A stretch of 60,663 nt of DNA, the filler included. It is 3 parts of 3 records of this genome, joined end to end, with 100 filler letters (N's around TTAATTAATTAA, not from the genome) between each part and the next. Parts side by side here need not be neighbours in the genome. Positions count along the whole stretch, not along the records: positions 30,154 to 60,663 come from SRR2962707_2447; 2 more parts are not named here. One strand, given 5' to 3'. Position 1 is the first letter of the stretch; the number at the start of each line of letters is the position of its first letter. The translations under genes and the position numbers were made by a program. Positions 30,154 through 59,413 of this stretch are shown here, piece after piece. The notes under the pieces are model-generated. The model worked only from the letters and a program-made list of their open reading frames with translations. It ran no database searches and was not told the DNA's origin.

Positions 30154-30154
30154 G

Positions 30155-33100: not shown

Positions 33101-36100
33101 CTGAACAATGGTGACTTCGACTACACCACGGACAATTCAGTATCCGGTAATCAGAACTGGGAAGATCTGAATGGTGGCGGCGATAATGACTTTAACGACG
33201 TCAATGTGAACGTTGAAGTCACGAATAGCTCAGCCGGAAGCATGGTCGAGTACCCGCTGAACATCACATCGTCGCTGACGGATACGGATGGTTCGGAAAC
33301 CTTGTCGATCACCGTGTCCGGCCTGCCCGAGGGGGCCGAACTTTCCGCCGGCACGCAGAATAACGATGGTTCGTGGAGCCTGTCCGCCGGTCAGCTTGCC
33401 GGTCTTGTCATGACGGTTGCAGCCGGGGCCGAGAACTTCGAGCTTTCGATCACGGCAACTTCAACCGAAAACGACGGTGATGTTGCGACGGTCGGGGTGA
33501 CGCTGGATGTTGATGATGTGCCGGGTGGCGATAATGCTGCCGATGGCGTGAATCTCTCCGCAAGCAATGCCAGCGGCAATGAAGATACCGCGATTGCACT
33601 GGATATTGCCTCTTCACTGAACGATACCGACGGTTCGGAAAGCCTGTCGATCTCGATTGCCGGTGTGCCGGACGGGGCGACGCTGAGCGCAGGGACCAAG
33701 AACAACGATGGCACCTGGACGCTTGAACAGAGCGATCTGGCCAATTTGACCGTGACACCGGCTGATGACTCCGACGACAACATGTCGCTGACGATTACGG
33801 CGACATCAACGGAAACCTCCACCGGCGATACTTCTTCGCAGACGGCGACGATGAATGTGGCCGTGAATGCTGTTGCCGATGCGCCCACTCTGACCGCCAC
33901 GCTTGGCCAGGGTACTGTAAATCAGGGTGATCCGGTCGCAGGTGAAACCTCGACGGTCTTCTCTTCGAACTTCGGCAATTCCGATATCGGCTTCGTGCAG
34001 ACTGTAGACGGTTGGAGCACGAATTCAGATGCCATCGAGACGTGGGATTCTTCGAGCGGGGAAACCGGCGACGGTGCTTATGTCGAACTGAACGATGATG
34101 CTGTGGATCATTATGACGATGCAACCAGCATCAATCGTGATTTCCCGACTGAGGAAGGCGCGACATATACCCTGACATTCCGATATTCTCCGCGGCCGGG
34201 ATACGATGAAGACGTGAACCGGATGGATGTTCGTGTTGACGGCCAGTCTATCCAGACGGTGTCGGCAGACGGTTCAGGTAACTCTGATAACGTCTGGCAG
34301 ACCCAGACCATAACTTTCGTCGGCAACGGCGAAACCATGAACCTTGAGTTCCTGTCGACCGGCGAGGCACAGAATTATGGCCGTGGCATGCGCCTTGATG
34401 ATGTTGTGTTGACGGAAACCACTGCGGAAGAGCCCGGTGACGTAACCGTAGAATACCCGTTGGATATCTCGGCTGCCCTAACGGATACAGATGGTTCGGA
34501 AGAGCTGACAATCAGCATTTCAGATCTGCCGGAGGGGGCGCAGCTTTCTGCAGGAACCCAGAACAATGATGGTTCCTGGACGCTGAATGCCGGTCAGTTG
34601 ACCGGTCTGACCCTGACGGTTGCCGCTGGTACTGAAGATTTCAATCTGTCCGTTACGGCGGTCTCGACTGAAACATCAAACGATGATGCCGCGTCAACGT
34701 CGCTCTCGCTGTTCGTAGATGTGCCGGAGGTCAATACAGACAATGCCGCTGATGGCGTGAACCTGTCCGCAGGTGATGTCAGCGGCAATGAAGATGCTGC
34801 GATTGCGCTGGATATCGCGTCGTCACTGAACGATACGGATGGATCTGAAAGCCTGTCGATTACGATCAGCGGTGTGCCGAACGGGGCGGTGCTCTCTGCC
34901 GGCACGAAAAACAACGATGGTACGTGGTCACTGGAAAGCGGGGACCTGGACGGCCTGACGATCACGCCGTCTGATGACTCCGACGAAGACATGACGCTCA
35001 CGGTATCCGCAACGTCGACCGAAAGCGCAAGCGGGGATACGTCGACACAGACGGTTACCATGAACGTCGGCGTCAACGCCGTAGCCGATGCACCGACCCT
35101 CAGTGCTGTTATTGGCGACCCGGTCATCGGTGGCGGTGCCGAAACCGTGAATGTACCGCAGTCGATCATTGACGCCGCAAGTGCCGAAGACGACCGTACG
35201 GTTACGGTATCCGGAGTTGGCGAAGGTGTAATGCTCTCCGCCGGAACGGATAATAGTGACGGCACCTGGACGTTGACGGCTGCTCAGCTTGAAGGACTTT
35301 CAGTCAGCACGGAAGATGGCAGTGCTGCCGATCTTTCGCTTGGCTTCTCGGTCATTGATGCCGGTGGCGGTTCGGAAACCCTGGTGTCCGCAGACTTCTC
35401 GTCGGGTGCACAGGGATTTGTCTATAACGACGGTGTGTTCAGCGCCGATAATGCATCGTCCTATAACCAGTATTATGAAAGCGGGACGGCCAGTAACGGC
35501 AACCTCAGTGTCACGCTGGGTGGCGTTGACGGCCATGACAAAACGGACCTGTCCGGTGGTCACTCCATCAACTTCGATGTGGATGATGCAGGCAGCGGTA
35601 CGCTGACCTTCAACTTCCGGATGGAACGTGGTGCCAACTTCGAAAGCGACGAAGACGGCATGGTTGTCGTGTCCATTGATGGTGTCGAGTACGAAGTTGC
35701 CACACACCAGGGTGATGGTGATGGCGGCAGCAGTTATGACAGTGGTTGGCAGACGGTGACGATCGATGTCGGTGATCTTGGCAGCGGCACCCACACCCTG
35801 ACCCTTGGCGCTCAACTTGAAAAGAAAACCGCTTCTGACGAAGTCATGAAGGTGTCGTTCGACAATGTGAGCCTGTCCGTAACATCTGAAAATTCAGAAG
35901 TTGCTAGCGCAACTGTGGATGTGGATGTCGATGCTCAGAATGTGACGTTCGATCTTGATATCGACGCAGCACTAACTGACACAGACGGTTCCGAAACCCT
36001 TTCCGTCACTGTCTCTGATTTGCCGGAAGGTGCGACCCTTTCCGCAGGAACTCAGAACAATGACGGTACGTGGACACTGTCGCCGGCGCAATTGACCGGT

Positions 36101-38467
36101 CTGACCATGACGGTCGCCGCGGGTGCCGGTGACTTCAACCTTTCGGTTGCTGCGGTCTCGACGGAGCAGAATGGCGGAGATACCGCAACCACGACGACCA
36201 CGATTGCGGTCGACGTGCCGGCGGTTGTAGCCGACCAGACAGCCGATGGTGTGAACCTCTCCGCAGGTGATGTCAGCGGTAATGAAGATACGGCAATTGC
36301 CCTGGATATCGCATCCTCACTGAACGATACGGATGGCTCGGAAAGCCTGTCGATCACGATCGGTGGTGTGCCGAACGGGGCTGTACTTTCCGCCGGCACC
36401 AACAACAATGACGGCACCTGGACATTAAACTCAGGTGACTTGACCGGCTTGACGATTACACCGCCGGCCGACAGCAATGAAGACTTTACGCTGAGTGTGA
36501 CGGCGGTTGGCGCCGAAACCGAAGGTGGCGGATCCGCAACTCAGACGGCAAGCTTCAATGTTGATGTGACCGGTGTGGCAGACGGTGCCAGCGTCTCCGC
36601 CTCGGCGACACTTGTTGAAGGTCACCTTGGTGGAGGCGGTTCTCAGACAGGATCCCACCATGGTACAGGCAGTGGTTCGGGCCATGGCTACGACAGCGAC
36701 CTCATCGCCTTTTTCGAGGTGACAGAAGATGACGACGGTAATCAGATCGATAACCAGGTTGGCGGAAATGACGGCGATAATCACTACGTCGGCATCAACA
36801 ATAACAGCGATGGGCCGAGTGGGACTTCCGCCGTATTCGACGGCAACAACGACTACATCGAAGTCGATCACAGTTCCAATATGGAAGCCGAATCCGGCAC
36901 GTTCGTGCTGTGGTTCAATACAGAAGATGCAGACTGCAAACAGGGCTTGTTCTCAAAGGACTCCAGCGGATACGACAGCGGTGGTCACTTAACGGCTTTC
37001 GTTGATGATGGCCAACTTCAGGTTCGTATGCAGAGCACCAATTCAAGTTATATGGTGCAGGGCGGAGATGTGACCAGCGGTGCCTGGCATCAGATGGCCT
37101 TCTCGTACGGTCCGGACGGTATGCGCCTGTATCTGGACGGGAACCTTGTTGACAGCGACAGTTTCACAGGTGGCATGCAGGGCAATCAGGAACCTCTGAT
37201 CTTCGGTGCCAATCAGTGGACGAGCGGCGACGGGGTAGCAAATAACCTGCAGGACTTCTTCACCGGAGAAATGGACAAGATCGCTGTTTACGATCGTGCC
37301 CTGACGCCGACGGAAATCGCCAATATGCATGAGGCCGGTGTGTCGCAGGTCGTAACTGAAGAAGGCGAAACCCTGGTCTACGACCTGGATATCGAAGGCA
37401 CGCTTGTGGATGTTGACGGTTCCGAAACCCTCTCGTTCGAGGTGCGCGGTCTGCCGGACGGGGTCACGCTGTCGGCCGGTCAAAGTGACGGCAACGGTAC
37501 GTGGTCCCTGTCTACTGCTGATCTGAGCGGGCTGACGATGACCGTCGATCCGAGTGTCAGTGAGGACTTCTCGATCGAAGTCGTGGCCATTGATACAGAA
37601 AATGACGGCGACTCCGCAGAATCACCGGTCGTATCTCTGGATATCGATGTAACGATTGAAGAGCCGGTTGAAATCAACGGGACTTGGCAGAGCGAAACTC
37701 TTGAAGGTGCCGGCGGAAATGACTCGATCTCCGGGAATGATGGCCACGACAAGCTCTATGGCTTCGGTGGCGATGATATTCTCAACGGCGGGTCGGGGAA
37801 CGACTCCCTATTCGGTGACGCCGGTGACGACGTCATGGACGGCGGGACCGGACACGATTATCTGTCGGGTGGTGCCGGAAACGATACCCTCACTGCCGGT
37901 GATGGCGACGATACCCTTGATGGCGGCAGCGGCAACGACGATATGTTCGGTGGTACCGGGCATGATGTCATGCTGGGCGGCGAGGGGAATGACGACCTTG
38001 AAGGTGGTCATGGAGATGATCGTCTGTACGGCGGTGACAATGACGACGCGCTCGACGGCGGTACAGGTCATGATCGTCTTTATGGTGGTGACGGGAACGA
38101 TGTCCTCAGCGGTGGTGACGGCAACGACACCCTGCAGGGCGGAGCAGGCGACGATATCTTGACTGGTGGCTCTGGCCAGGACCGCTTCGAATTCGATACG
38201 CAGAGCGGCCACGACATCATCCAGGACATCATGGAGCAGGACACCGTTGTCTTCGAAGGTCAGGAGTTCCATGCCGACGACATGATCTTCAACGAAAACG
38301 AAGACGGGGACGTGGTTGTTTCCTTCGCCGGGGTCGAAGGTCAGTCGGTGACACTGAACGGTGTCAGCATGGACGATCTGGACCGGAACGGCGACGGCGA
38401 TATCAGCGACGGTTACTCCGTAACCGAATCGAACGGCTCGGTATCACTGACCATCGACTCGCAGTAA
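30155..38467 (+). CDS. Giant T1SS-secreted RTX adhesin (LapA-like), 5' truncated, more than 2770 aa
   Basis: Frame is open from the contig edge; many DTDGSETLSITISG.P.GA.LSAGT.NNDGTWTL Ig/cadherin-like repeats; inserted lectin-like domains; C-terminal GGxGxD RTX nonapeptides. Confidence 0.95.
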   Translation, partial: FNNEDGGEQGNWQAFDADGNLVGEGVLNASTVDYSGSSNVGTAEISLPDGESFQYLVFTSSDTGNDNNQNDSSDFFIRALQYETNAEVAGEDVFTYTMQDADGDTASATLSIDVSEEQDTTASDPTLNVTDAAGFEDNAIPLDIAAGLGDLDGSESLSISISGVPAGAVLSAGTYDADSDSWSIAPEDIAGLTITPPADSNEDFPLTVTATSTEANGGDTATTTATINVGVTGIADMPTLSLTIGEPELTTTGGEPVETTINVDNVTDGNLGFSVTGRSINQDGSLTDASTDNISFNANPVGFGVSGAASGDQSEVGFDNQEGVSEELIVSFDSPASSADVSFAWMHPGEQASYDLYLDGVKVGEGVITGITDQIDPPVTFTAEDGSLFDQIVFKAPDSGDDYLINSISFETPTAGETLAEYPLDIQSSLTDTDGSETLSITVGGLPEGAELSAGTQNNDGTWTLTPAQLTGLTMTVEAGNDDFEIQVTATSTENDGDTASVTVTADVGVPSGDQTASDPNLTAGDVGGNEDTAIALDIASSLSDTDGSETLSITISGMPDGAELSAGTNNNDGTWTLAPGDLDGLTVTPPANSNEDFSLTVTATSTESASGDTATQTTSFNVDVTGVADTPGASAQNETGVEDQWIQLHLDSAISEDTDGSETLSITISGVPEGARLNPGTEVGDGVWTATAAELPSVCILPPDDFSGEMSMTLSVTSTEDDGDTATTEVPFTVNVTGDADAPTVSIGNAAGYEDQPIALDISAALSDTDGSETLSVTIGGVPAGAQLSAGINNNDGTWTLTGPELEGLSITPPADSNEDMSLTITATATEENGDTATTTGTMNVAVTGVADAPTLSATIGEGVETSTASDITITNMGQVSAGYNNSYGYYVKDEDGNPGEGMVIWTNAKEDVGDTFTIEGVDPDSIGFFIIPDGGSQNGNLDAQTPVTFTQDQNGNWQAVDGNGHALSAAGGSVLFNDPALNNGDFDYTTDNSVSGNQNWEDLNGGGDNDFNDVNVNVEVTNSSAGSMVEYPLNITSSLTDTDGSETLSITVSGLPEGAELSAGTQNNDGSWSLSAGQLAGLVMTVAAGAENFELSITATSTENDGDVATVGVTLDVDDVPGGDNAADGVNLSASNASGNEDTAIALDIASSLNDTDGSESLSISIAGVPDGATLSAGTKNNDGTWTLEQSDLANLTVTPADDSDDNMSLTITATSTETSTGDTSSQTATMNVAVNAVADAPTLTATLGQGTVNQGDPVAGETSTVFSSNFGNSDIGFVQTVDGWSTNSDAIETWDSSSGETGDGAYVELNDDAVDHYDDATSINRDFPTEEGATYTLTFRYSPRPGYDEDVNRMDVRVDGQSIQTVSADGSGNSDNVWQTQTITFVGNGETMNLEFLSTGEAQNYGRGMRLDDVVLTETTAEEPGDVTVEYPLDISAALTDTDGSEELTISISDLPEGAQLSAGTQNNDGSWTLNAGQLTGLTLTVAAGTEDFNLSVTAVSTETSNDDAASTSLSLFVDVPEVNTDNAADGVNLSAGDVSGNEDAAIALDIASSLNDTDGSESLSITISGVPNGAVLSAGTKNNDGTWSLESGDLDGLTITPSDDSDEDMTLTVSATSTESASGDTSTQTVTMNVGVNAVADAPTLSAVIGDPVIGGGAETVNVPQSIIDAASAEDDRTVTVSGVGEGVMLSAGTDNSDGTWTLTAAQLEGLSVSTEDGSAADLSLGFSVIDAGGGSETLVSADFSSGAQGFVYNDGVFSADNASSYNQYYESGTASNGNLSVTLGGVDGHDKTDLSGGHSINFDVDDAGSGTLTFNFRMERGANFESDEDGMVVVSIDGVEYEVATHQGDGDGGSSYDSGWQTVTIDVGDLGSGTHTLTLGAQLEKKTASDEVMKVSFDNVSLSVTSENSEVASATVDVDVDAQNVTFDLDIDAALTDTDGSETLSVTVSDLPEGATLSAGTQNNDGTWTLSPAQLTGLTMTVAAGAGDFNLSVAAVSTEQNGGDTATTTTTIAVDVPAVVADQTADGVNLSAGDVSGNEDTAIALDIASSLNDTDGSESLSITIGGVPNGAVLSAGTNNNDGTWTLNSGDLTGLTITPPADSNEDFTLSVTAVGAETEGGGSATQTASFNVDVTGVADGASVSASATLVEGHLGGGGSQTGSHHGTGSGSGHGYDSDLIAFFEVTEDDDGNQIDNQVGGNDGDNHYVGINNNSDGPSGTSAVFDGNNDYIEVDHSSNMEAESGTFVLWFNTEDADCKQGLFSKDSSGYDSGGHLTAFVDDGQLQVRMQSTNSSYMVQGGDVTSGAWHQMAFSYGPDGMRLYLDGNLVDSDSFTGGMQGNQEPLIFGANQWTSGDGVANNLQDFFTGEMDKIAVYDRALTPTEIANMHEAGVSQVVTEEGETLVYDLDIEGTLVDVDGSETLSFEVRGLPDGVTLSAGQSDGNGTWSLSTADLSGLTMTVDPSVSEDFSIEVVAIDTENDGDSAESPVVSLDIDVTIEEPVEINGTWQSETLEGAGGNDSISGNDGHDKLYGFGGDDILNGGSGNDSLFGDAGDDVMDGGTGHDYLSGGAGNDTLTAGDGDDTLDGGSGNDDMFGGTGHDVMLGGEGNDDLEGGHGDDRLYGGDNDDALDGGTGHDRLYGGDGNDVLSGGDGNDTLQGGAGDDILTGGSGQDRFEFDTQSGHDIIQDIMEQDTVVFEGQEFHADDMIFNENEDGDVVVSFAGVEGQSVTLNGVSMDDLDRNGDGDISDGYSVTESNGSVSLTIDSQ
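30490..37660 (+). repeat. Intragenic Ig-like repeats of about 100 aa
   Basis: Recurring GATAC(G/C)GA(C/T)GG(T/C)TC(G/C)GAAA and AACAA(T/C)GA(C/T)GGCACCTGGAC; near-identical units start at about 33535, 34742 and 36238. Confidence 0.9.
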
Positions 38468-47394: not shown

Positions 47395-47748
47395 TCAGGT
47401 GTGGCGCTGACAGTCGATGCAGTTCGGCGCACTGGGATCGTTTTCAAGTCTTTTAAGGGCGATATCTTCGTCACAGATGGTGCAAAAGCCATAATCACCG
47501 GTTTCGATACGCTCCAGCGCCGCATTGATGCGGTGGCGCTCGATGTCACGCCGGCGTTCCGTTTCCAGTTGCATGGCCTGTCCCTGAAGGGCATCCATGC
47601 GGGACAGTCTGCCGACGGAAGTCTGGTCAAGTTCCACAGGCTTTCTGGACTCCGCCGAGATATCCGACAGCGCATCCAGTTCGTCACGCATTTTGACCAA
47701 TCGTTTCTTAAAGCCGGAAATCTGTTGCTTGGTCAGGGGCACGGTCAT
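47395..47748 (-). CDS. TraR/DksA C4 zinc-finger protein
   Basis: ELDQTSVGRLSRMDALQ, YGFCTIC...CIDCQ; ATGA overlap with the adaptor gene. Confidence 0.9.
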   Translation of the reverse strand: MTVPLTKQQISGFKKRLVKMRDELDALSDISAESRKPVELDQTSVGRLSRMDALQGQAMQLETERRRDIERHRINAALERIETGDYGFCTICDEDIALKRLENDPSAPNCIDCQRHT

Positions 47749-49043
47749 CGCTCCCGCAAGGCGTCCTGCATGCGTCCGACAAGTGGATCAAGAATGTATT
47801 CCATGACGGTACGCGATCCGGTCTGGATAGAGGCAATGACCTGCATGCCGGGGAACAGATCGTAACGCAGTTTCCCATCCTCGAAATAGCTCCGTTCCGT
47901 GGAAATCCGGACCTTGTAAAACGGACGGCCTTCTTCGGTGACCAGCGTGTCGGGCGAAACGCGATCCACGACGCCTTTCAGATCACCGAATTTGGCGGCA
48001 TCGGCGGATGCCAGCGTGACTTTTGCAGCCTGACCGGCACGCACGTAGCCGATATCCTGCGGCGGCAACTGGGCGTCGATGATCAGTCGATCATCCGCGG
48101 GGACGATATCAACAACCGTCGTCCCGGCACGGACGACACCACCGACGCTGACGACGTATAAAGATTTGATAATACCGTCTACGGGCGCGCGCAGCGTGGT
48201 CCGGTTGAGGTTGTCCTCGACCTTGCGGATGCGTTGCGAAAGCTCGTCCATTTCGCGCGTGACCTTATCCAGTTCGGTCTGTGCTTCCTCTCTGAACGAA
48301 GCGCGGATGGTTTCCATATTGGCCTGGGCTTCGCCAAGCGCCGCGCGAAGACGCGGTAAAGCAGCTTCAGCTTCATCGATGCGGCCGCGAAGGTCGGCTG
48401 CTTCCTTGAGCAGATTAAGGTGCAGCATCCGGTTGGTCAGTTCTTGAGCCAGAAGCTTTTCCGAAATGTCGATCTGTTCCGTGATCAGTTTCAGACTTTT
48501 CTGTGCGCTGGCGCGACGCTGCTGGACTTCCTTGATCTCCAGTTCGCGCTGACGGATGGCATCTTCCTGAGCACGAACCTGCCCCAGCATGCGTTTTTTT
48601 CGGGTTTCAAAAAGCGCGATGGACTGGCGGATCAGTTCCGGTTCCGCCTTGACGAGAGCAGGGGGGAATTTCGGCTGGTCCAGTCCGGCAAGTTGGGCAT
48701 TGTAGCGCGAAATGTCGGCGAGCAATGACCTCAGCCGGATCTTAAGCTCCTGAACATCGGCGCCGCTCTGTGTCTGTTCCAGTTCGACGAGTGATTGGCC
48801 GGCAGTGACGCGATCTCCTTCCTTGACCAGAATGGCGCGGACGATCCCGCCTTCCAGGTGATCGACCGATTGCACATTGGTGGAAGGGGATACTTCGCCG
48901 GTGGCAACGGAAACAATGTCGAGTTCCGCATTGTTCGCCCAGATCGAAAAGGCCAGGAGCGCAGCGATGCACAAGCCGAGGAACATGTGTGTCCCGCGTT
49001 TGACCTCGTCGTCTTCGGGGTTCGGCTCTATTTCTTCACTCAT
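47745..49043 (-). CDS. T1SS periplasmic adaptor (HlyD/LapC family)
   Basis: HLEGGIVRAILVKEGD, long coiled coil, LRAPVDG, LFPGM, ALRER end. Confidence 0.95.
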   Translation of the reverse strand: MSEEIEPNPEDDEVKRGTHMFLGLCIAALLAFSIWANNAELDIVSVATGEVSPSTNVQSVDHLEGGIVRAILVKEGDRVTAGQSLVELEQTQSGADVQELKIRLRSLLADISRYNAQLAGLDQPKFPPALVKAEPELIRQSIALFETRKKRMLGQVRAQEDAIRQRELEIKEVQQRRASAQKSLKLITEQIDISEKLLAQELTNRMLHLNLLKEAADLRGRIDEAEAALPRLRAALGEAQANMETIRASFREEAQTELDKVTREMDELSQRIRKVEDNLNRTTLRAPVDGIIKSLYVVSVGGVVRAGTTVVDIVPADDRLIIDAQLPPQDIGYVRAGQAAKVTLASADAAKFGDLKGVVDRVSPDTLVTEEGRPFYKVRISTERSYFEDGKLRYDLFPGMQVIASIQTGSRTVMEYILDPLVGRMQDALRER

Positions 49044-50743
49044 GACGCCGTCTCCGTTCGCACGACACGGGGTTTGTTTTGCCGTAATACGGGCGTCGGT
49101 TTGCTGTCCAGATCAAGGATCAAGGTTGCGGCACTGACGATTTTTGGATTTCGTGAAAAGGCGATAATGGTTTTCCCACGCCGGGCCATATCGATCAGGG
49201 CGGAATACACGAAGGCCGTGCCTTCCTCATCAAGGCTTTCCGTCGGTTCGTCCAGTACTGCAAGTTTACCGCCCACGAACATAGCGCGGGCAAAGGCAAG
49301 CCTGCGGCGCTGGCCCAATGCCATATTGCCGCCGCCGTTGGTGATGATCCGGTCCATCCCGTCGGGGCTTTCGTCGACAAACGGCCCCAGTCCGACTTCG
49401 CGGACAATCCGCATCAGGGTTTCTTCCGTCTGATCGGGGTTGGCGGCTTCCATGTTGGCGCGCAGGGATGCATTGATGAAGGTCGGCTCCTGGGGGAGAT
49501 ACATCAACTGGGCGCGCCACCAAGCAGGATCAAGCTGCTTCAAGTCGACACCATCTGCGAGAATTTGACCACGTGCCGGATGCAGAAGGCCTGCCGTCAT
49601 CTTTGCCAGTGTCGACTTTCCGGCGCCGTTCGATCCGGTCACGACCATCACCCCACCGGGCGGAAGTTTGAAATTCAGCCCCTCAAAAAGCGGCGTGTTG
49701 GCTCCCGGGTAGGAGAACGAGACATCACGGAATTCAATCTGGCCATTGAACTGGCTGAGTTTGGCGCCTTTCCCCTGTTCGACGGGGAGTGTGGCGAATT
49801 CGCGGACCTTGGCGAGGGCATTCTCGGCCTTGGCAAAGGTTTCCCCAAGCTGGGCGAATTTGATCATCGGACCAAGCGTGCGGGCGGAAAGAATATTGGC
49901 GCCGATCAGCAAGCCGACATCAAGCTCTCCGTGCACCACAAGCCACGCACCGGTGGAATAGATGAAAACGCTCATCAATGCCTGGGCGCTTTGGGTAACG
50001 GATTGCACGAGTGCCTGCCGGCGCGCGATCAGCGCTCTGAGCAACCGGGACCGTTCACTCGCTTTGGTCCATGCTTCCGTGATGATGGAACGGCCACCGA
50101 AAGCACGTATCGTATCGGTTGCGCCGTTGGCATTGTTCAGCAGCCCTGAAACTTCATTCTGTGCACCGCTCAGGGTCGTCATCGGTCCGCGCAGGCTGCG
50201 TTGGGACTGGACTGCGAACAGGAAGATCACGATCAGGAACCCAACGGCGATAGCCGCAAGATGCGGGCTGAGCATGAACAGGGCAATGGCGAACAGAATT
50301 GCAAACGGAACATCGATGACCGAGGTGATGTTACCGGGGGTATAGGCGTTTTCGACTAGATCAAGGCCGCGCACGACTTCACGTCTTTCGCCGGGCGGAA
50401 TGCTCATCAGCGCCATGCTTTCTGCGGTGTTGAGAATACCGAAGGCGCCGGTCGACAGTTCGTCGTCCTTTTTGGCGCTTAGACCCCGTGCGAGTTTCAG
50501 GCGGGCCTGTCGAAAGCCGAGTTCAAGGGCAATGGCAATCAGGACGCCCGAAGCAAGGGCAGCAAGTGTGGCATCGACGCCCTGTCCGACATAGCGGTTC
50601 AGCACCTGAATCACGAACAGGGGAGAGGCGAGCGCAAGTATATTGGCAAACAGTGAGGCCGCCACAATCTCTGCGGTCAAACCCGGTTTGGCTTTCAGGC
50701 GTCTTAGTAATTCACCCATTCGCTCGCCTGTCGATTGCTCCAC
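49040..50743 (-). CDS. T1SS ABC transporter, no C39 domain, degenerate nucleotide-binding domain
   Basis: NILALASPLFVIQVLNR TM domain, GSNGAGKST Walker A, VLDEPT Walker B; signature MALGQ; H-loop FSRN. Confidence 0.9.
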   Translation of the reverse strand: MEQSTGERMGELLRRLKAKPGLTAEIVAASLFANILALASPLFVIQVLNRYVGQGVDATLAALASGVLIAIALELGFRQARLKLARGLSAKKDDELSTGAFGILNTAESMALMSIPPGERREVVRGLDLVENAYTPGNITSVIDVPFAILFAIALFMLSPHLAAIAVGFLIVIFLFAVQSQRSLRGPMTTLSGAQNEVSGLLNNANGATDTIRAFGGRSIITEAWTKASERSRLLRALIARRQALVQSVTQSAQALMSVFIYSTGAWLVVHGELDVGLLIGANILSARTLGPMIKFAQLGETFAKAENALAKVREFATLPVEQGKGAKLSQFNGQIEFRDVSFSYPGANTPLFEGLNFKLPPGGVMVVTGSNGAGKSTLAKMTAGLLHPARGQILADGVDLKQLDPAWWRAQLMYLPQEPTFINASLRANMEAANPDQTEETLMRIVREVGLGPFVDESPDGMDRIITNGGGNMALGQRRRLAFARAMFVGGKLAVLDEPTESLDEEGTAFVYSALIDMARRGKTIIAFSRNPKIVSAATLILDLDSKPTPVLRQNKPRVVRTETAS

Positions 50744-50833
50744 TATGTGGCGTCATCATTCTTGGTCAGTCTATTATTTCAGAAATTCCGGAAAATATAT
50801 ATGCAGCAGTGCTTTAAAGGTGCCGCAATGATT

Positions 50834-53569
50834 TTATCGATCCGAAAGTTCCGGACCTTGCGGTGTCCCGGGCTCAAATTCGATTTTTTTGATCATCTTG
50901 CCGCCGGAGCCCAGAAGGTCTTCGAAGAAGGCAAGCAGTGACGGTTTTTTCTGCGCTGCCTTTTGCGATGCACTCTCCGTTTCGGGCTTCATATCCGCTT
51001 CAGGTGCGGTTTTGGGGCCAAGAACGGCAAGGTCTTCTGTTTTTGTCGCCTTTTGGGCTTTGCCGGATTTCTCGTCGAGGGCCCGCTGGTGTGCGGCTTC
51101 GAGGAAATTAAAGATATCCATCAATGAGCCGAAGCCCTTGCTTTCGCTTTTCTCAGCCATCTGAGAAGGCTTGACTTCGGGGTCGGACGCCAAGGGGACA
51201 GAAGCCACTTCCACGGGTTTGTTTGCTTCCGTGTTTTGGGTTTCTTCTTTGACTTCAGGGATATCTTTCTTCTCAGCAGGAACGGGTTCGACTTCCGAGA
51301 CGTTCCGGAGATCAGCCATTTCATGAAAATCAGTCTGCGGTGTATCAACCGTCAATTTGGCGTTCTCAAAGAACGTCACGACGTTCCCGAAAAAGTTGGA
51401 TATCGGATCATTGCCGGTGGCTGACGCATCGCCAGCAGCCGGTTCCGGCGCCTTGCTGACTTCAATCACCGTGTCCGGCTCCGGTATGGGCATCGCCGGC
51501 ATATCCATTGATACGCTTTTATAGCTCTTCGTTGGTTGAGCCGGGGGAGCGTCCGAAAGAGCTGCCTGGTGGGTATTATCCATGAAGGAAAACAGATCCT
51601 TGAAAAAAGTACCGGCAGTTTTGAAAGGATCGGCTACAGGCTGGTCCGCAGGTGGTGTTTCTGCAATTTCGGTTTCAGCCGTTAGATCCGGGACAACTTC
51701 GGGACTGGACAGATTTTCAGCCACAGCAGCATCAGCTTGAACCTGATTATCTGCCGGAACTGTAAAGTCTTCATACATCAGGGGCGCAGGTGTCGATGCG
51801 ATCCCGGTATCGCTATTTGCCGGTAGGGTCTGCTTGCCTTCAAGCGCGAGCAGAGCCGCAACGTCACCGCTGGCAAATTCGACGTCGTCAGGTGTGACCG
51901 GATCAGCGAAGGCGCCGGCCTCGGTTTTGAAATCGGCAAAGCTGTCATAGCGTGACAGGGGCTCAGGCGGTTGTTTTGGTTTAGCCAGCATGGTCCCGGA
52001 TTGAGACCGGCCGAATGTGTAGATGGTATCGGGCAATTGGCTGACATCCGGGGTAGCGATTTCCAGAAACAGCGCATGCAGGTCATTCACGGAGCGGCCG
52101 TCCGCAACGGTCACATCCGGTTCGATCTCGCCATTGATTTGCCCGGTGGCAGGCGTCACGGGAAGTACAGGTGCTGGGGCAGGTGTTTCTGCTGCTGGTG
52201 CAGAGGGTGGCAATTGCTTCTTCGGCGCCTCGGTGCCTTTTGATAATTTGATGACGTCGTATTCCAACTGACCGGTGGCTGCCAACAGGCCATAGGCGGC
52301 AATCAGAACATCGGTTTCAGCGGAAAAGGCGTCCGATTTAGAGTTGATCAGATTGGTTTCACCGGACAGCACATCAATCAGTGAGCGGCGGCCCAACTGG
52401 CGTTCGTTGCGGGCAAGTTCCAGGAACGCCGCAGCAATATTGGCCTGATTGTTGAGGTGCGAGGCTGTCTGCTTAGCCGTTTCAAGCTGTTGCCAGGAAT
52501 TCTGGACCTGTTCTTCGATATTCCGGCGCGTATCGGCAGCGGTAAAGGTCGTAGCGCTGAGGTCGCTTTCAGATGCTCTCAGCGTGTTGATCGCGGTAAA
52601 TCCGAGATTGAAGTCGAAGGTCATTTCGACCTTGGCTAATGTTTCCTGTTCGGAACCGATCGTGCCGCCGACATTCTTTTTGAACTTGCGTTCAGCCTTG
52701 GCATCGATTTTCGGTGTGAAATTCTCGGCACGGGCCTTACGGACATCTTCAACCGCTATATCTGCTGCGAGAATGGCGTTTTTTAGCGTTGGGTTTGATT
52801 CCAGGGCGATATCCGTTGACTGCACCAGTGTTTGCGGCAGAAAGGACGCCGGAAACGGCACGGATTCAAGATCGTCCAGATTATCCGGCTTGCGTCCGAA
52901 AACGGCCTGGAACCTGTTCAGGGCATTAATCAGGCCGCCTTCACTTTGTGCACGGCGTGCCTGAGCGCCGGCCAGTTGGGTTTTTGCCTGAAGAACATCC
53001 GTGGAAAAGCCGGACCCTAATTCGACAAGAGCCTCTTCAAGGCCCGTCTGGCGGCGAATGTTCTCTTCTGAATCCTTTGCAAAACCAAGGGCTGCATGCG
53101 AGCGGATGACGTTCAGATAAGCGGTAATCGCCTCCAAAATCAGTGATTGCCTTGTTTCGATCAGGTTGTAGCGGGCTTCTTCCACCTGTAGGCGGGCCTT
53201 GTCGACGGTGGCATTTGTGGCGCCGAAGTCCCACAAAAGCTGGGTTAACGAGATATCCCATTCATTGAAGCCGGTGCTGCTATCGCTGCCGTTATCATTC
53301 TGCTGGCGTTCATGTCCGGCGTTCGCCGTCTGGCCGAGTGTTGGATACCACGCTCCGAGAGCCTCACGTGCCCGGTTCCGGGCTGCGGTCAGCCGGGATT
53401 TGGAAGCTCGGACACGGTCATGGTTTTCGATAACGTATGGGAGGAGCGTTTCCAGGTTTTCTGCCTGAGCAGGGGATGTAGCAATGGCACACTGAAGCGT
53501 GACCGCCAACACAAAGGCAGCCGCAACGCGTGCGGTCATGCGAACTGAAAGGCTCCAGTCCTTCATCAA
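50834..53569 (-). CDS. T1SS outer-membrane TolC/LapE protein with a long C-terminal extension
   Basis: Signal peptide, SLTQLLWDFG, LGRRSLIDVL..E, LLAATGQL; about 470 extra acidic/Pro-rich residues. Confidence 0.9.
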   Translation of the reverse strand: MMKDWSLSVRMTARVAAAFVLAVTLQCAIATSPAQAENLETLLPYVIENHDRVRASKSRLTAARNRAREALGAWYPTLGQTANAGHERQQNDNGSDSSTGFNEWDISLTQLLWDFGATNATVDKARLQVEEARYNLIETRQSLILEAITAYLNVIRSHAALGFAKDSEENIRRQTGLEEALVELGSGFSTDVLQAKTQLAGAQARRAQSEGGLINALNRFQAVFGRKPDNLDDLESVPFPASFLPQTLVQSTDIALESNPTLKNAILAADIAVEDVRKARAENFTPKIDAKAERKFKKNVGGTIGSEQETLAKVEMTFDFNLGFTAINTLRASESDLSATTFTAADTRRNIEEQVQNSWQQLETAKQTASHLNNQANIAAAFLELARNERQLGRRSLIDVLSGETNLINSKSDAFSAETDVLIAAYGLLAATGQLEYDVIKLSKGTEAPKKQLPPSAPAAETPAPAPVLPVTPATGQINGEIEPDVTVADGRSVNDLHALFLEIATPDVSQLPDTIYTFGRSQSGTMLAKPKQPPEPLSRYDSFADFKTEAGAFADPVTPDDVEFASGDVAALLALEGKQTLPANSDTGIASTPAPLMYEDFTVPADNQVQADAAVAENLSSPEVVPDLTAETEIAETPPADQPVADPFKTAGTFFKDLFSFMDNTHQAALSDAPPAQPTKSYKSVSMDMPAMPIPEPDTVIEVSKAPEPAAGDASATGNDPISNFFGNVVTFFENAKLTVDTPQTDFHEMADLRNVSEVEPVPAEKKDIPEVKEETQNTEANKPVEVASVPLASDPEVKPSQMAEKSESKGFGSLMDIFNFLEAAHQRALDEKSGKAQKATKTEDLAVLGPKTAPEADMKPETESASQKAAQKKPSLLAFFEDLLGSGGKMIKKIEFEPGTPQGPELSDR

Positions 53570-53729: not shown

Positions 53730-53939
53730 TGCCGGACTACGCTGGTATCAAAGCGTGAGAGGGGAATCCATTGCAAGCCTTGATTGAAAGGCTTTACCAA
53801 TAATCACAATCGCATAACAATCTGACAACAAAGCATTGCAATTAGGTGGGTCGAAGTTGTTTTGCATATCTGGTAATCTTTTTCATCATCGATTGATGGG
53901 CTGCGCCGTCAGGCGTTTGTGGCAGGAACGGGGGAAATC

Positions 53940-56873
53940 GTGGAGTTTCTGAAACGGCTGAGCAAAAAACAGCTCTTTGGGCTGATTTTGGCACTGTTGG
54001 TGATCATGACGATCATCGGCTCGATCATTGCCAACTTCACCTATCTGTCGGATGACGAGGATAAAACGGTACGGATCGCCGTCGTTGCCCCGCTGAGCGG
54101 GCCATTGGCGATTAACGGGCAGTCCCTGATCCAGGGGGCCGAACTGTACGCCGAAGGCATTAACGAGGCAGGGGGCATTCGCGGCGGCCGAGTTATCGTC
54201 GATGTTTACGACGATAAGAATGATCCAGACGAAGCGCGCCGCATCGCAGAGGAACTCGGCAACTCATCGACCCTGGCCGTCATCGGTCACTGGAGCGTTA
54301 AAACAACCAGTGCCGCCGCACCTGTTTATCAGAAATACAATCTGCCGATGATCGCACCAGCCCCGGTTGACCGCGACGTGGTAGAGGAGAAGCCCTCCGT
54401 CTTCTCCGGGGTTTTCGACACCAACCATGAAACCGCGTTCGTCGCAAACTACACACGTAACGTGCTTGGACAGAAAACCGCATCAATCATTCACGATCTG
54501 TCGCCACGTGGCCTGAAAATGGCCGATACATTCGAAGAGACCTACAAACGCTTCGGGACGCGTATTCGGTATAAATGGGGTTTCGACAGTGAAAGCCCCG
54601 ATCTTGACGATCGCATTCAGGAAATCGCCGAAGATCTTAAACCGAAACTGGATGTCGGCACCGTCTTCATTGCCGCCGAAGAGGATATTGCAGCCAAGGT
54701 TCTGATCGCCCTGAGGGACATCAAAGCGCGCAATCCGGTCGTCGGCACCTCGATCCTGGCGACACGGGCATTTCAGCAGTCATTGGGCGAGGATAGTGAA
54801 ACGATATCGGGATACACCAATGGTATTGTGACATCGACGCCGCTGCTCTTTGACACCGCAAACGAAGAGGCGCAGGACTTCAACTCCCGTTACCAGAACA
54901 AGTTCGGTTCTTCATCGGACTGGGTCGCAGCCTATGCGTTCGATACGACGCATCTTATTGTCGAGAGTTTCAAGGGCGGGGTAAGAAGCGAAGAGGAGGG
55001 CATTGTCGACGGTGGCCGCCGGATGATCAGGGAAAGGCTGGCCGCGGCTATCGATGTGGAAAACGGCATTCGCGGGATTACCGGCGTTAAGACTTTCACG
55101 ACGCAGGGTGAAGCGAAATCACCGGTCTTCATGGGCCGTTATGATGGCCGCAACATGGTGTCGGCGCTGACGCAGCTGCAGCCGATCAAGGCCGGGGTTG
55201 CCGCCAATTTCATTGAAGAACTGAAAAAAGGCAAAGTTCTCTATGTGAACGACCGGTTCATGTACAAGACAAACGTCGTCTATACCGGTCTGCAGGTAAA
55301 GGAAGTGACGGACCTTGATGTTGAAAAGGGCCAGGTCACGCTCCACTTCCTTTTATGGTTCCGCTACAGCGGCGATTTCAAACCAGAAGACCTGGTCTTC
55401 TCGAACGCGGTCGAGCCGATCGTTCTCGATACGCCGGCGGCTGAACAGATTTCCCGGGGTCTCAATTACAAACTTTATGAGGTTAAGGGGAAATTCAATT
55501 ACAACTTCTCGAAGGTCAAACGGCCTTATGGAACCGTGCTGATCGGTTTCGACTTTGCGCACCGCGTCTTGAACCGCAACAACCTGCAATACGTGACCGA
55601 CGTGCTGGGGATTGGGCTGGCAGGTCAAACGACCTTCCAGAACATTCTTGAGCGTAATCAGGTCATCAGCGAGAAACTCGACTGGGATATTGACCGGGCC
55701 TGGGTCTCGCAGGAAATCGTGCCCGTGGGGACGCGTGGTGATCCGACGTATGTCGGCCATGGGTCCGTCGACCCGCTGTTCTCGCGTATTACCATGGGGA
55801 TATTGACCAGTCCGGCCCGGATCAATGTGCGTGATTTCGTGCCGGAGGAGTACTTCGTCTATCTGACGATCTTCGGTCTTCTGGGGACAATCTTTGCCGT
55901 CATGATGGATCGAAAGAAACATGGCCGTTTCTGGTCGGCGCAGTCCTGGATACTTCGTCTGATGGCATGGCCGGTACTGCTGCTGGCTGGGGGCAGTCTG
56001 CTGCTTGATTTCGCGGTGCAGGAACTGCAGGCCGGTTATGTGGACATGATCGTGCTGGTGTATGACTGCCTGTGGTGGATCGTCCCGGCACGAATTTGCG
56101 GGATCGCCCTCGAGCGGTTCCTGTGGGTGCCGCTGGAACAGCATACCCGGCGTATGGTGCCCAACGTGATCCGCATGTTCGGCTCGTTGAACATCTATAT
56201 TCTGGCCGCTTTCGGCATCATAGCATTCGTGTTCGATCAGAAGATTACCAGCTTGCTGGCAACCTCCGGTCTGTTGGCAATGATCATCGGTCTGGCCATC
56301 CAGGCCAATATCTCGAACGTCTTCTCGGGGATCGCGATCAATATCGAACGTCCGTTCGTGGTCGGCGACTGGGTCAAGATCGGTGAGCTTGAGGAAGGCG
56401 AAGTCGTCGACATCACCTGGCGGACCGTTCGGGTGAAGACGCGAAACGGCTTCACGATATCGGTGCCGAACGGTCAGGCCTCGGAATGGCCAGTGCACAA
56501 CTATACGGCCGGCAAGGTGACACGATTGTCATATAACCTGAATGTCGACCCGGATGTGGATCCGCGCGGTATTGAAGAAGTGCTCATGCGGGCTCTTCTT
56601 AAATCCGAAAACATCGTCAAGGAGCCGAAACCTTCCGTACGCTATAACGGCACGGTCGATGGTTATAACGATTGGGGCGGGCAGTTCTCGATCCAGTACT
56701 GGATTGCCAACTATTCCATGCGAGAGCAGATCGCATCCGATGTCTGGGACAATGTCTGGGATGAGCTTGAAAAAGCCGGTCTTTGCGGCAAGGTCAATAA
56801 GGCAGAATCCGAGAGCGGATCACCTGATACCGGTGCCGAAAATGCCGAACCCCAGGCCCAACCCGCCCAATAG
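53940..56873 (+). CDS. Fusion protein: type-1 periplasmic binding protein + pLGIC-like extracellular domain + MscS channel
   Basis: RIAVVAPLSG...INEAGGIRG...DDKND...VIGHWS (PBP1); VYTGLQVKEVTDLD...F.LWFRY (pLGIC-like); IGLAIQANISNVFSGI..ERPFVVGDWV (MscS). Start is GTG 53940 or 53919. Confidence 0.88.
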   Translation: MEFLKRLSKKQLFGLILALLVIMTIIGSIIANFTYLSDDEDKTVRIAVVAPLSGPLAINGQSLIQGAELYAEGINEAGGIRGGRVIVDVYDDKNDPDEARRIAEELGNSSTLAVIGHWSVKTTSAAAPVYQKYNLPMIAPAPVDRDVVEEKPSVFSGVFDTNHETAFVANYTRNVLGQKTASIIHDLSPRGLKMADTFEETYKRFGTRIRYKWGFDSESPDLDDRIQEIAEDLKPKLDVGTVFIAAEEDIAAKVLIALRDIKARNPVVGTSILATRAFQQSLGEDSETISGYTNGIVTSTPLLFDTANEEAQDFNSRYQNKFGSSSDWVAAYAFDTTHLIVESFKGGVRSEEEGIVDGGRRMIRERLAAAIDVENGIRGITGVKTFTTQGEAKSPVFMGRYDGRNMVSALTQLQPIKAGVAANFIEELKKGKVLYVNDRFMYKTNVVYTGLQVKEVTDLDVEKGQVTLHFLLWFRYSGDFKPEDLVFSNAVEPIVLDTPAAEQISRGLNYKLYEVKGKFNYNFSKVKRPYGTVLIGFDFAHRVLNRNNLQYVTDVLGIGLAGQTTFQNILERNQVISEKLDWDIDRAWVSQEIVPVGTRGDPTYVGHGSVDPLFSRITMGILTSPARINVRDFVPEEYFVYLTIFGLLGTIFAVMMDRKKHGRFWSAQSWILRLMAWPVLLLAGGSLLLDFAVQELQAGYVDMIVLVYDCLWWIVPARICGIALERFLWVPLEQHTRRMVPNVIRMFGSLNIYILAAFGIIAFVFDQKITSLLATSGLLAMIIGLAIQANISNVFSGIAINIERPFVVGDWVKIGELEEGEVVDITWRTVRVKTRNGFTISVPNGQASEWPVHNYTAGKVTRLSYNLNVDPDVDPRGIEEVLMRALLKSENIVKEPKPSVRYNGTVDGYNDWGGQFSIQYWIANYSMREQIASDVWDNVWDELEKAGLCGKVNKAESESGSPDTGAENAEPQAQPAQ

Positions 56874-56903: not shown

Positions 56904-57347
56904 ATGTTTCTTGAAATGTTGAATAATGAGCAGCGTGTGTCGTTTCTGACCTTGGCCAGCCGTGTTGCCTTATCTGATGGGGAAGACTCAGCCGAAGAGT
57001 TGCATGCGATTGAAAAGCTGCGCGATGAGATGGGCGTTCAGGCCGAAGTGGATATCAGCAAGGCGCTGGACGAAATTGATGTATCTGCCTTTGACACGCA
57101 CCAGTCCAGGGTGATCGCTGCGTTGGAACTGTTGCGGTTGGCTTATGCAGATGAATATGTCCACGAGGCCGAAATCGCTGAGGTGCGAGATATCTGCGAG
57201 GCCATGGGGTTCCCGGAAGAATGGCTGTCAACCATGGGGCAGTGGGCGACCCGCTTTACCGAGGTTGAAGGCGAGGAAATTGAAGGGGAAATGGCCGAAT
57301 ATCGTGATGCGCTGATCGAGCATGCGCACCAGATGATGGCGGTCTAG
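56904..57347 (+). CDS. TerB-like acidic protein
   Basis: MFL..LN.EQ..FL.LA..VA.SDG..S.EE and LAYAD..VH..E; AGGAAAG RBS; 30 nt after the channel gene. Confidence 0.75.
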   Translation: MFLEMLNNEQRVSFLTLASRVALSDGEDSAEELHAIEKLRDEMGVQAEVDISKALDEIDVSAFDTHQSRVIAALELLRLAYADEYVHEAEIAEVRDICEAMGFPEEWLSTMGQWATRFTEVEGEEIEGEMAEYRDALIEHAHQMMAV

Positions 57348-57375: not shown

Positions 57376-58227
57376 TCAGTCGATAATTTCCGATACGTAA
57401 ACCGGAAGCGCAAATGCCCCTTTGTGAACCTCGGGCGTGTAATAGCGCGTTTTAAAACCGGCCCTGGCAAAGCGGTCCGATAGCACCGATACATCGACGG
57501 TGCGGAGCGCGGCGTTATCGCTGGCCCACCCGAGGGCCATCGGTCCCCCGACATAGGTTGGAATGGACGCCAGATAACATGATGCATCGGCAAACAGATG
57601 ACGCAGATGCGCAACGGTATTTTTCAACTCATCCGGCTGCATGAAGGGGACACCATTTTGCGTCACCAATATGCCGCCCGGCGACAGGCACTTTTTGGCA
57701 TTGGCATAGAAGGTGTCCTGAAACAGGACTTCACCCGGACCGATCGGGTCCGTGCTGTCGACGATAATGACGTCAAAAGTATCCTGCGTATCCTTCACGA
57801 AGGCGGCACCATCGGCAAAAACCAGATTGGCGCGCGGGTCATCAAAGGCGCCTGCTGAATGGTTCGGCAGATGATCCTTGGATAGTTCAACCACACTTGG
57901 GTCGATCTCGACCATCGTGCAGTGTTCGACATCAGGGTGGCGCAGAACTTCGCGCAGCATGCCGCCGTCACCACCGCCGATAATCATGACCCGTTTGGCT
58001 GCGCCGTGCGCGAAGATCGGCACATGGGAAAGCATTTCGTGGTAGATGAATTCATCGGCTTCGGTCGTCTGGGTGACGCCGTCCAGCATCATCATGCGGC
58101 CAAACACGGGATTCCGGAAGATCACCAGGCGCTGATGATCCGTCATGCTGTCGAAGTTGACTTCGGAACTTAGATAATTTGTTTGCCAGCCGGTGTAGAG
58201 CGTTTCTTTGAAAGAATTATCTGCCAT
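57376..58227 (-). CDS. speE: Spermidine synthase (polyamine aminopropyltransferase)
   Basis: LDGVTQTTEADEFIYHEM, IIGGGDGG, VEID, DVIIVDSTDPIGPG. Confidence 0.96.
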   Translation of the reverse strand: MADNSFKETLYTGWQTNYLSSEVNFDSMTDHQRLVIFRNPVFGRMMMLDGVTQTTEADEFIYHEMLSHVPIFAHGAAKRVMIIGGGDGGMLREVLRHPDVEHCTMVEIDPSVVELSKDHLPNHSAGAFDDPRANLVFADGAAFVKDTQDTFDVIIVDSTDPIGPGEVLFQDTFYANAKKCLSPGGILVTQNGVPFMQPDELKNTVAHLRHLFADASCYLASIPTYVGGPMALGWASDNAALRTVDVSVLSDRFARAGFKTRYYTPEVHKGAFALPVYVSEIID

Positions 58228-58235
58228 CTTTCCGG

Positions 58236-59338: not shown

Positions 59339-59413
59339 GTCCAAGTATTCCCGTCAAACCGGTGCCTGCAGTCGCGTTGACAGCAGGCGCAGGGCGGATT
59401 ACCAACCACAACC

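Follow-up and report, generated by a model that had tools for sequence, protein, structure and literature searches.

A candidate ligand-controlled MscS-family channel with a periplasmic binding protein and a pentameric-channel-type extracellular domain, linked to type I secretion genes

To our knowledge, the extracellular domain (ECD) of ligand-gated ion channels of the pentameric type (pLGICs) has been studied almost only in pentamers, where fixed loops couple it to the channel's own four-helix pore, and few non-mechanical inputs to MscS-like channels are known to us. According to passages of Tasneem et al. (PMC549065), an architecture of a type I periplasmic binding protein (PBP), a ligand-binding domain and four transmembrane (TM) helices was predicted in Magnetospirillum and Bradyrhizobium. 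In MscK and MscM, as stated in parts of a 2026 review of MscS-like gating (PMC13591265), dilation or disassembly of the periplasmic ring accompanies gating, and MscK needs external potassium. Passages of PMC6272769 describe SiiAB from the type I secretion system (T1SS) of Salmonella SPI4, where this MotAB-like proton channel governs how the giant adhesin SiiE is retained. Here, we describe a gene whose product places a PBP and a pLGIC-type ECD on an MscS-type pore. It lies in a window of 60,663 nucleotides, which is the whole stretch of DNA that was analysed and of which positions 30,154 to 60,663 come from record SRR2962707_2447.

Both parent families, pLGIC and MscS, are known; their combination on an MscS pore is undescribed in the literature searched. 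A search of the full texts of openly accessible papers found no description of a pLGIC-type domain on an MscS pore, in agreement with the first-pass annotation of this DNA, which knew of no functional description. The main text of Tasneem et al. (PMC549065) has no occurrence of MscS or mechanosensitive, and the 2026 review (PMC13591265) has none of binding protein, pentameric or ligand-gated.

A single open reading frame (ORF) at 53919..56873 (+) encodes 984 amino acids (aa), and residues are numbered throughout from the upstream GTG at 53919. This in-frame codon is a possible alternative start. Translation probably begins at the GTG of position 53940, because a GGGGGAA lies just upstream of it and homologue P0012 starts at the matching M-E-F-L-K. 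Frame, GGGGGAA and P0012 start thus bear out the gene extent proposed in the first pass. The domain order and coordinates given there are likewise in good agreement with Pfam, a hydropathy scan and the strands of an AlphaFold model:

53940..56873 (+): PBP / pLGIC-type ECD / MscS channel gene (ORF, homologue starts)
53973..54029 (+): N-terminal membrane anchor, residues 19-37 (hydropathy scan; K/R-rich residues before it, N-in)
54066..55145 (+): type I PBP (Peripla_BP_6 / ANF_receptor), residues 50-409 (Pfam, LivJ-like matches in the PDB)
55239..55289 (+): linker plus the beginning of strand beta-1, residues 441-457 (invariant columns; common to the pLGIC-pore sister clade described below)
55251..55814 (+): pLGIC-type extracellular beta-sandwich, residues 445-632 (AlphaFold model, Foldseek, VIA-align)
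55521..55532 (+): degenerate Pro-loop position R-P-Y-G, residues 535-538 (invariant Y-P-F-D in the sister clade)
55845..56006 (+): two additional N-terminal TM helices of the YnaI type, residues 643-696 (hydropathy, model, YnaI alignment)
56040..56333 (+): MscS TM1-TM2-TM3 core, residues 708-805 (hydropathy, homologue alignment, MscS alignment)
56310..56783 (+): cytoplasmic MscS beta domain (798-863) and alpha-beta domain (874-955) (Pfam)

The Peripla_BP_6 match at residues 50-409 (E 7.3e-34) covers profile positions 1-339 of 343 and with them both lobes of the fold. At the other end of the protein, Pfam finds MS_channel_2nd at residues 798-863 (58.7 bits; cut-off 20.2) and MS_channel_3rd at 874-955 (21.8 bits; cut-off 21). 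Besides the anchor at 19-37, the hydropathy scan shows five further hydrophobic segments between residues 645 and 800; the first of the two extra TM helices directly continues strand beta-10. In the predicted topology, an N-in anchor is followed by a periplasmic part of about 600 residues, by five TM helices in the manner of YnaI and, in the cytoplasm, by an MscS vestibule. In public annotation, such proteins go under the names of substrate-binding proteins of ABC transporters or of potassium efflux proteins, and the family is thereby hidden.

The middle beta domain comprises about 190 aa, with strands at residues 452-632, corresponding to window positions 55272-55814, in the AlphaFold model. 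The model was built with AlphaFold2 from a 48-sequence alignment of residues 430-672 (the window protein and 47 genome loci), and has a mean predicted local distance difference test (pLDDT) score of 78.9 and a predicted template modelling score of 0.68. It consists of a short helix, beta strands at model residues 23-203 (beta-1 to beta-10) and a long helix that corresponds to the first TM segment. In the PDB, Foldseek found at least 500 matches at E<=0.001, the best of them with E 4.9e-10 and a probability of 1.00, and all matches among those listed are acetylcholine-binding protein (AChBP) or nicotinic receptors. In a comparison with 48,161 representative chains by VIA-align, which is independent of Foldseek, ranks 1-32 are all pLGIC or AChBP (Z 9.2-14.1, 146-164 residues aligned), and Z falls to 5.3 at rank 33. 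Among these matches, sTeLIC reaches Z 14.1, DeCLIC (6v4a) 13.8, GLIC 13.2 and ELIC 13.0. Since both methods agree, the predicted structure confirms the middle domain as a pLGIC extracellular-domain fold. The first-pass annotation had recognised a pLGIC-type domain here and proposed a Foldseek comparison as a check; its assignment stands on both comparisons.

In a PDB sequence search, the C-terminal part of the protein matches MscS and YnaI, with MscS at E 1e-17, and window residues 666-896 align to residues 36-264 of the YnaI chain. In the alignment to E. coli MscS, R811-P812-F813 fall on R-P-F. M788 and L792 fall on the two gate leucines of E. coli MscS, and A796 lies at the first hinge glycine (G113), G804 at the second. 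TM3 has the Gly/Ala packing pattern and the hydrophobic gate of MscS. Across 28 diverse full-length homologues, the columns of these aligned residues are invariant or nearly so, with T777, S778, G784, G791, A793, N800 and G804 as invariant columns of the pore helix and gate pattern. Both cytoplasmic domains, TM3 and the gate positions are therefore present, and the core is complete, as first annotated. A four-helix M1-M4 pore (Neur_chan_memb, PF02932) has no match in the window protein, the C-terminal half of which is MscS. Because the MscS-family PDB entries listed all hold 7 chains, a heptamer is expected by analogy, and the channel is presumably a heptamer. Hexamers were formed by the isolated extracellular domain of GLIC (Nury et al. 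2010, cited after a passage in PMC6719409), which suggests that a pLGIC ECD without its pore need not be pentameric.

With residues 430-690 as the query, 202 protein clusters matched at E<=0.001. Both PF13458 and PF00924 occur in 113 of the 120 clusters listed; the remaining 7 are shorter and carry PF00924 only. In a scan of one genome per species, 215 stretches encode a relative, complete chromosomes included. This survey of the architecture across genomes, which had been suggested as a check, thus finds a relative in 215 species genomes, and the fusion is hence no assembly artefact. All locus counts in this study refer to the best 80 of these 215 relatives. The middle domain is present in all 80 loci at E<=3e-62. 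Going by record titles, their hosts are 55 Alphaproteobacteria, 9 Desulfobacteria, 6 Magnetococcia, 4 Gammaproteobacteria, 2 Betaproteobacteria and 4 others, and cultured hosts include Azospirillum and Magnetospirillum, both of them non-pathogenic, Marinibaculum and Desulfamplus magnetovallimortis. As a side observation, many hosts are, again going by record titles, magnetotactic (Magnetospirillum, Magnetospira, Magnetovibrio, Magnetococcales, Desulfamplus magnetovallimortis; loci L016, L018, L020-L023, L028, L030, L038, L043-L048, L053, L054, L059-L061, L064-L066 and L079).

When 1.84 billion cluster representatives were searched with a profile of the 48-sequence ECD alignment, 1034 proteins matched at E<=0.001, of which 302 reached E<=1e-30. 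A Pfam scan of ten of these matches for variants gave PBP, MscS and cNMP_binding in five (P0160, P0161, P0170, P0173, P0179), MscS and cNMP_binding without a PBP match in P0185, PBP and MscS only in P0163 and P0178, a weak Neur_chan_memb match in P0258, and no match in P0248. The complete genome G001, in which locus L002 lies, holds a copy of the channel gene 96% identical to that of the window, and a second paralogue (L086; contig C1, 507622-511260) of 1150 aa with the PBP-ECD-MscS order and a C-terminal cNMP_binding domain. Among 28 close and distant full-length homologues, the L441-G457 block together with W480-Y483 is the densest invariant run of the whole protein. As more invariant columns lie in linker and ECD than elsewhere in the protein, the sensor layer is under strong selection in the MscS context, too. 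Loop F of pLGICs lies between beta-8 and beta-9. At this place, an insertion of about 40 residues was seen in P0077, P0083, P0095, P0109 and P0112 (A1 columns 661-700).

The protein with the weak Neur_chan_memb match belongs to a sister clade. P0258 is a protein of 336 aa that matches the ECD profile at E 2.7e-42 and has the linker and W-F-R-Y motifs in common with the window protein, while its Pro-loop position reads Y-P-F-D-R-Q. A search with it among longer proteins gave 143 clusters at E<=0.001. The 120 listed are mostly of 750-770 aa with Peripla_BP_6, or of about 1200 aa with an extra SBP_bac, and many are cyanobacterial; PF02932 is precomputed in 7 of them and PF00924 in none. A model of P0258 built on 44 sister proteins (pLDDT 81.7) aligns over both ECD and TM domain to full-length pLGICs, which take ranks 1-19 (Z 15.4-18.8, 254-274 residues), with Z of 18.8 for GluCl, 17.6 for GLIC, 17.4 for sTeLIC, 16.9 for DeCLIC and 16.6 for ELIC. 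This places the P0258 clade on a pLGIC pore, and thus one PBP-plus-sandwich module occurs on two unrelated pores. The clade has the architecture predicted by Tasneem et al. (PMC549065).

A maximum-likelihood tree was computed from 153 ECDs filtered below 62% identity (75 MscS, 49 MscS with a C-terminal tail of more than 120 aa, 29 pLGIC-pore). In this unrooted tree, the pLGIC-pore sequences all lie on one side of a single branch, which amounts to one change of pore type. The state of the C-terminal tail changes 19 times on the same tree; it was gained or lost many times. An exchange of the pore between two channel families, with one event compatible with the unrooted tree, is the best reading of these sequences. 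The first-pass annotation had put this more specifically, as a graft of the pLGIC domain onto an unrelated pore; the exchange itself is supported by the sister clade on pLGIC pores and by the single change, while its direction is not given by an unrooted tree.

A comparison column by column of 124 MscS-type and 29 pLGIC-type ECDs shows where the two clades differ (frequencies in parentheses):

Position 535: pLGIC-type Y (1.00); MscS-type commonest R (0.35)
Position 536: pLGIC-type P (1.00); MscS-type commonest P (0.20)
Position 537: pLGIC-type F (1.00); MscS-type commonest Y (0.45)
Position 538: pLGIC-type D (1.00); MscS-type commonest G (0.74)
Position 540: pLGIC-type Q (0.97); MscS-type commonest H (0.65)
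Position 632, end of strand beta-10 (pre-M1 Arg): pLGIC-type R (1.00); MscS-type commonest K (0.32)

In pLGICs, the signal passes from the ECD to the pore through the Pro-loop and the pre-M1 arginine, the classical elements of this coupling. The window protein has R-P-Y-G at 535-538 and P at 632, and so lacks both. Its K-R-P-Y-G-T had been paired by eye with the Pro-loop of GLIC, and the alignment of this stretch at the Y-P-F-D position of the sister clade confirms the pairing indirectly. The loss of both elements fits a sandwich that no longer faces a pLGIC pore. Kept in both clades are G457, W480, F481, R482, N496, Y517, Y520, H548, D561, G564, W589, G607, P609 and S622. In a sample of 301 Desulfobacterota-type genomes, where ordinary binding proteins swamped the search, one full-length sister gene was found (G365). 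The 15-kb stretch around it has no match to the secretion genes of the window, a single sister locus being too few for a conclusion.

The nearest solved relatives of the PBP are Leu/Ile/Val-type binding proteins, as judged by a PDB sequence search. In the alignment to LivJ (2liv), G-H-L-C-S-S of LivJ stands against G-H-W-S-V-K of the window protein, and P-A-A-T against P-A-P-V. These two LivJ stretches bear the Ser and Thr that anchor the amino acid. The consensus of the pLGIC-pore sister clade keeps the LivJ-like G-H-Y-x-S-S-T-S and S-G-S-A-T. From these sequences, an alpha-amino acid is not favoured as the ligand of the window PBP. An amino-acid or polyamine ligand, as the first-pass annotation had in mind, thus finds no support: the presumed LivJ positions are changed, and speE/speD lie near close relatives only. 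Polyamines were considered as a candidate and dropped, because the speE/speD neighbours are confined to the 14 closest of the 80 loci.

The gene neighbourhood adds a secretion-system context to the PBP-ECD-MscS gene, which is a new observation and was missed in the first pass. The window contains the following genes around the channel:

30230..38467 (+): giant RTX / Laminin_G_3 / cadherin-type protein, 2745 aa, candidate type I secretion substrate
47745-49043 (-): HlyD adaptor (TIGR01843, 409.7 bits; cut-off 208.65)
49040-50743 (-): ABC permease/ATPase (best model LssB type, below all cut-offs)
50834-53569 (-): TolC-like outer-membrane protein, 911 aa (TIGR01844, 211.8 bits; cut-off 225)
56904..57347 (+): TerB-like ORF, 147 aa, on the strand of the channel and 31 nt downstream of it
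57376-58227 (-): spermidine synthase
58236-58697 (-) and 58958-59338 (+): AdoMet decarboxylase-family ORFs
59414-60262 (+): Ion_trans-type channel, 282 aa

In the TolC-like protein, the OEP/TolC match covers about residues 39-437, and the C-terminal part of about 460 residues is rich in Pro, Ala, Glu and Asp and has no family match. The giant gene is followed by a gene for a PAS and HD_5 protein at 38548-40863 (-), which could be a cyclic-di-GMP-type regulator of the adhesin.

Neighbourhoods were counted over 6 kb per side where present, and secretion components at a minimum of 35% identity over at least 300 residues. Two or more of TolC-like protein, ABC transporter and HlyD adaptor occur in 44 of the 80 loci. 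A giant ORF of at least 900 aa, belonging to one similarity cluster and rich in Laminin_G_3, Big_9 and cadherin-like domains, occurs in 20; it shares the strand of the channel and ends just upstream of it. Either or both of these partners (at least two secretion components, or a giant) are found in 60 loci. The order is TolC-ABC-HlyD-channel in Azospirillum, channel-TolC-ABC-HlyD in Desulfamplus and several Magnetococcales, and channel-ABC-HlyD-TolC in others. In Marinibaculum (L112), one strand carries ABC, HlyD, a giant of 3251 aa and the channel in this order, the last two being about 6 nt apart. The giant of the window resembles the giants beside the channel elsewhere in LamG-domain similarity only. 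Five whole genomes (G001-G005, those behind loci L002, L068, L079, L020 and L029) were inspected for ABC homologues of at least 40% identity. The sole such homologue adjoins the channel in three of them (G002, G003, G005); in G001 the one by the channel is the best of three, and in G004 the homologue lies on another contig. The linkage of the channel to the secretion system is conserved, and it survives rearrangement across three bacterial classes, which is a usual sign of a functional link.

The TerB-like ORF is present in 22 of the 80 loci, the distant copies at about 30% identity. In 20 of these it sits downstream of the channel and shares its strand, and in L020 and L030 it is on the opposite strand. 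Its product may be a cytoplasmic partner of the channel. The cluster further downstream (57376-60262) is kept only in the closest 12-14 loci.

Implementing these findings, we propose a chemically controlled MscS-family channel, with a sensor taken as a unit from PBP-fused pLGICs, that feeds into secretion control; we put the probability of this reading at roughly 0.55. Heptamer, ligand gating, coupling path and secretion role are the parts that we infer. The protein would form an inner-membrane MscS-type heptamer with a periplasmic sensor in two parts, a Venus-flytrap PBP and a pLGIC-type beta-sandwich, joined by the invariant linker. A periplasmic ligand would close the PBP and thereby move or re-pack the layer of beta-sandwiches. 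As beta-10 runs into the outermost TM helix, this movement might pull on the peripheral helices, so that the pore opens or its tension threshold shifts. The chemical signal would in this way become a flux of ions or osmolytes, or a change in membrane potential. As the gene is kept beside T1SS genes and a giant protein in distant lineages, we propose that this flux is an input to the control of the giant LamG/cadherin surface protein, in its secretion, its retention or its release. A more specific version is tentative, and we would rather bet against it than on it: seven pLGIC-type ECDs, each capped by a PBP, could form a non-pentameric ring on the heptameric MscS part and serve as the T1SS's own control unit in the inner membrane, through which a ligand from the periplasm or the environment would set how a giant LamG/cadherin adhesin is secreted, retained or released. 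With such a ring, the sensor layer of pLGICs could be transferred from one pore to another even where their symmetries differ.

Several observations weigh against a ligand-controlled channel with a pLGIC-derived sensor and a role in secretion. At the sequence level, the sandwich is hardly visible as a pLGIC domain. Pfam gives no family for residues 419-684 even at E<=10 and no Neur_chan_LBD for the whole protein; the best hit of the middle domain alone in a sequence search of the PDB is a lipoprotein at E 0.47; and a PDB profile search finds no pLGIC, with an Ig-type chain as best match (E 1.4). Aligned with hhalign to three canonical Neur_chan_LBD proteins, a poor three-sequence alignment, the ECD alignment reaches 38% probability over 33 columns. 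The Neur_chan_LBD profile match expected in the first pass thus did not appear. The three canonical proteins were taken from alphaproteobacterial genomes; among 151 sampled genomes, only 2 gave a match that exceeded the Pfam cut-off. The ECD profile matches one Pfam-positive protein of Azospirillum at 28.5 bits, which is a weak sequence link. In Azospirillum brasilense (G002), a protein of 394 aa (L087:1180-2364) has Neur_chan_LBD at 30.8 bits, above the Pfam cut-off; it is the only canonical pLGIC-type protein found by the ECD profile in the five genomes, and it co-exists with the MscS-fused form.

The branch that carries the pore change has a value of only 69 in the Shimodaira-Hasegawa-like approximate likelihood ratio test. 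The classical coupling elements of pLGICs are lost, so any coupling must use a new path, and the positions that presumably anchor the amino acid in LivJ are not kept. As to secretion, the evidence is that of gene neighbourhood. In the window itself, the type I secretion triplet (47745..53569, minus strand) lies upstream of the channel and is divergently transcribed, and the giant gene is 15 kb upstream. Neither partner was found in 20 of the 80 loci; in 19 of these, at least one flank is shorter than 6 kb, but L033 has both flanks in full.

Some of these points would suit a channel that is gated by tension only, an osmotic valve in which the periplasmic ring tunes threshold or hysteresis and no small-molecule ligand is involved. 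The complete MscS core with its hydrophobic gate residues and the five-TM layout like that of YnaI are what such a valve would need, and in MscK and MscM, by analogy and according to parts of PMC13591265, large periplasmic rings shape gating. The lost pLGIC coupling motifs and the changed positions of presumed LivJ function point in the same direction. However, a passive spacer is hard to square with linker and ECD as the most conserved parts of the protein and with the full two-lobe Peripla_BP_6 match that has been kept. The sensor module is common to the bona fide ligand-gated pores of the sister clade, and the cNMP-binding domain of six of the ten scanned relatives, and of L086, agrees better with signalling than with emergency release. 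Nor is it obvious why an emergency valve should be linked to a secretion system. On balance, we consider gating by tension only unlikely, although it deserves to be kept in view.

It would also be conceivable that the beta-sandwich is itself the ligand sensor, with an agonist site between adjacent ECDs, and that the PBP concentrates the ligand or hands it over, as passages of Tasneem et al. (PMC549065) propose for PBP-fused pLGICs. Both clades keep W480-F481-R482 in beta-2, Y517, Y520, H548, D561, G564 and W589, as well as G607 and P609 in the beta-9/beta-10 hairpin and S622, and by fold order these positions would match the places of pLGIC binding loops. They could equally be the core of the fold or a docking surface for the PBP, and lateral contact between ECDs is uncertain in a 7-fold assembly. 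We therefore regard a ligand site in the sandwich as distinctly improbable. Even less credit is given to a non-conducting sensor or scaffold, in which the MscS part is an oligomerisation and membrane platform and secretion or adhesin are regulated by protein contacts. The conserved linkage to secretion genes and giant proteins would be explained by it, and the cytoplasmic loops between the TM helices are very conserved (R733-F734-W736, P748) and could be contact sites; but the invariant columns include those of the pore helix and of the gate pattern, for which a scaffold would have no use. An assembly chimera or a recent accidental fusion without function has practically no chance, since the cluster, genome and locus surveys refute it (both domains in 113 of the 120 clusters listed, 215 species genomes, the middle domain in 80 of 80 loci).

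The preferred reading, a ligand-controlled channel with a transferred sensor, would make this family a natural test of coupling between sensor and pore: a pLGIC ECD and its PBP have been moved onto another pore family, and the classical coupling motifs were discarded. A structure would show whether the sandwich builds a 7-fold ring or works without lateral contacts, driving an unrelated gate. The protein is a candidate ligand-controlled MscS channel, and the T1SS linkage suggests a possible new regulatory part of giant-adhesin secretion; for a channel-type part in this process, we know of no analogy other than SiiAB. The family should be of interest both for structural biologists of channels and for students of the type I secretion of giant adhesins.

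Compared with known systems, the PBP-fused pLGICs come closest. They have Peripla_BP_6, the linker (D/N)-x-(R)-(F/Y)-M-x-K-(T/V)-N-V-V-Y-T-G and the sandwich with W-F-R-Y in common with the window protein. In contrast, they end in the helical pore of pLGICs and keep Y-P-F-D and the pre-M1 Arg, whereas the window protein has a five-TM MscS part and has lost both; they also keep the LivJ-like PBP motifs, which the window protein lacks. DeCLIC resembles it in that a pLGIC-type ECD follows extra periplasmic domains that modulate gating, as far as the abstracts describe it. It keeps the pentameric pLGIC pore, and its N-terminal domains are not mentioned as type I PBPs in these abstracts.

On the side of the pore, YnaI has the same five-TM layout, and YnaI and MscS have in common with the window protein the TM3 pore helix and the cytoplasmic beta and alpha-beta domains; the window protein adds about 600 periplasmic residues and an N-terminal anchor helix. 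MscK and MscM, in the parts of PMC13591265 that describe them, also carry a large periplasmic domain on an MscS-type pore, but these domains are helical bundles, with eleven TM helices and neither a PBP nor a pLGIC fold. With the cyclic nucleotide-gated channels of bacteria (bCNG), many relatives of the window protein, L086 included, have in common a cNMP_binding domain added after the MscS core. The window protein itself has no cNMP_binding match in Pfam, and the bCNG channels described in the parts of PMC13591265 concerned are not reported with a PBP-ECD sensor. SiiA and SiiB, MotAB-like proteins, have no relation to the window protein in sequence or fold; as far as passages of PMC6272769 go, they would be its analogues in role only, as an inner-membrane, ion-conducting accessory encoded with a giant-adhesin secretion system.

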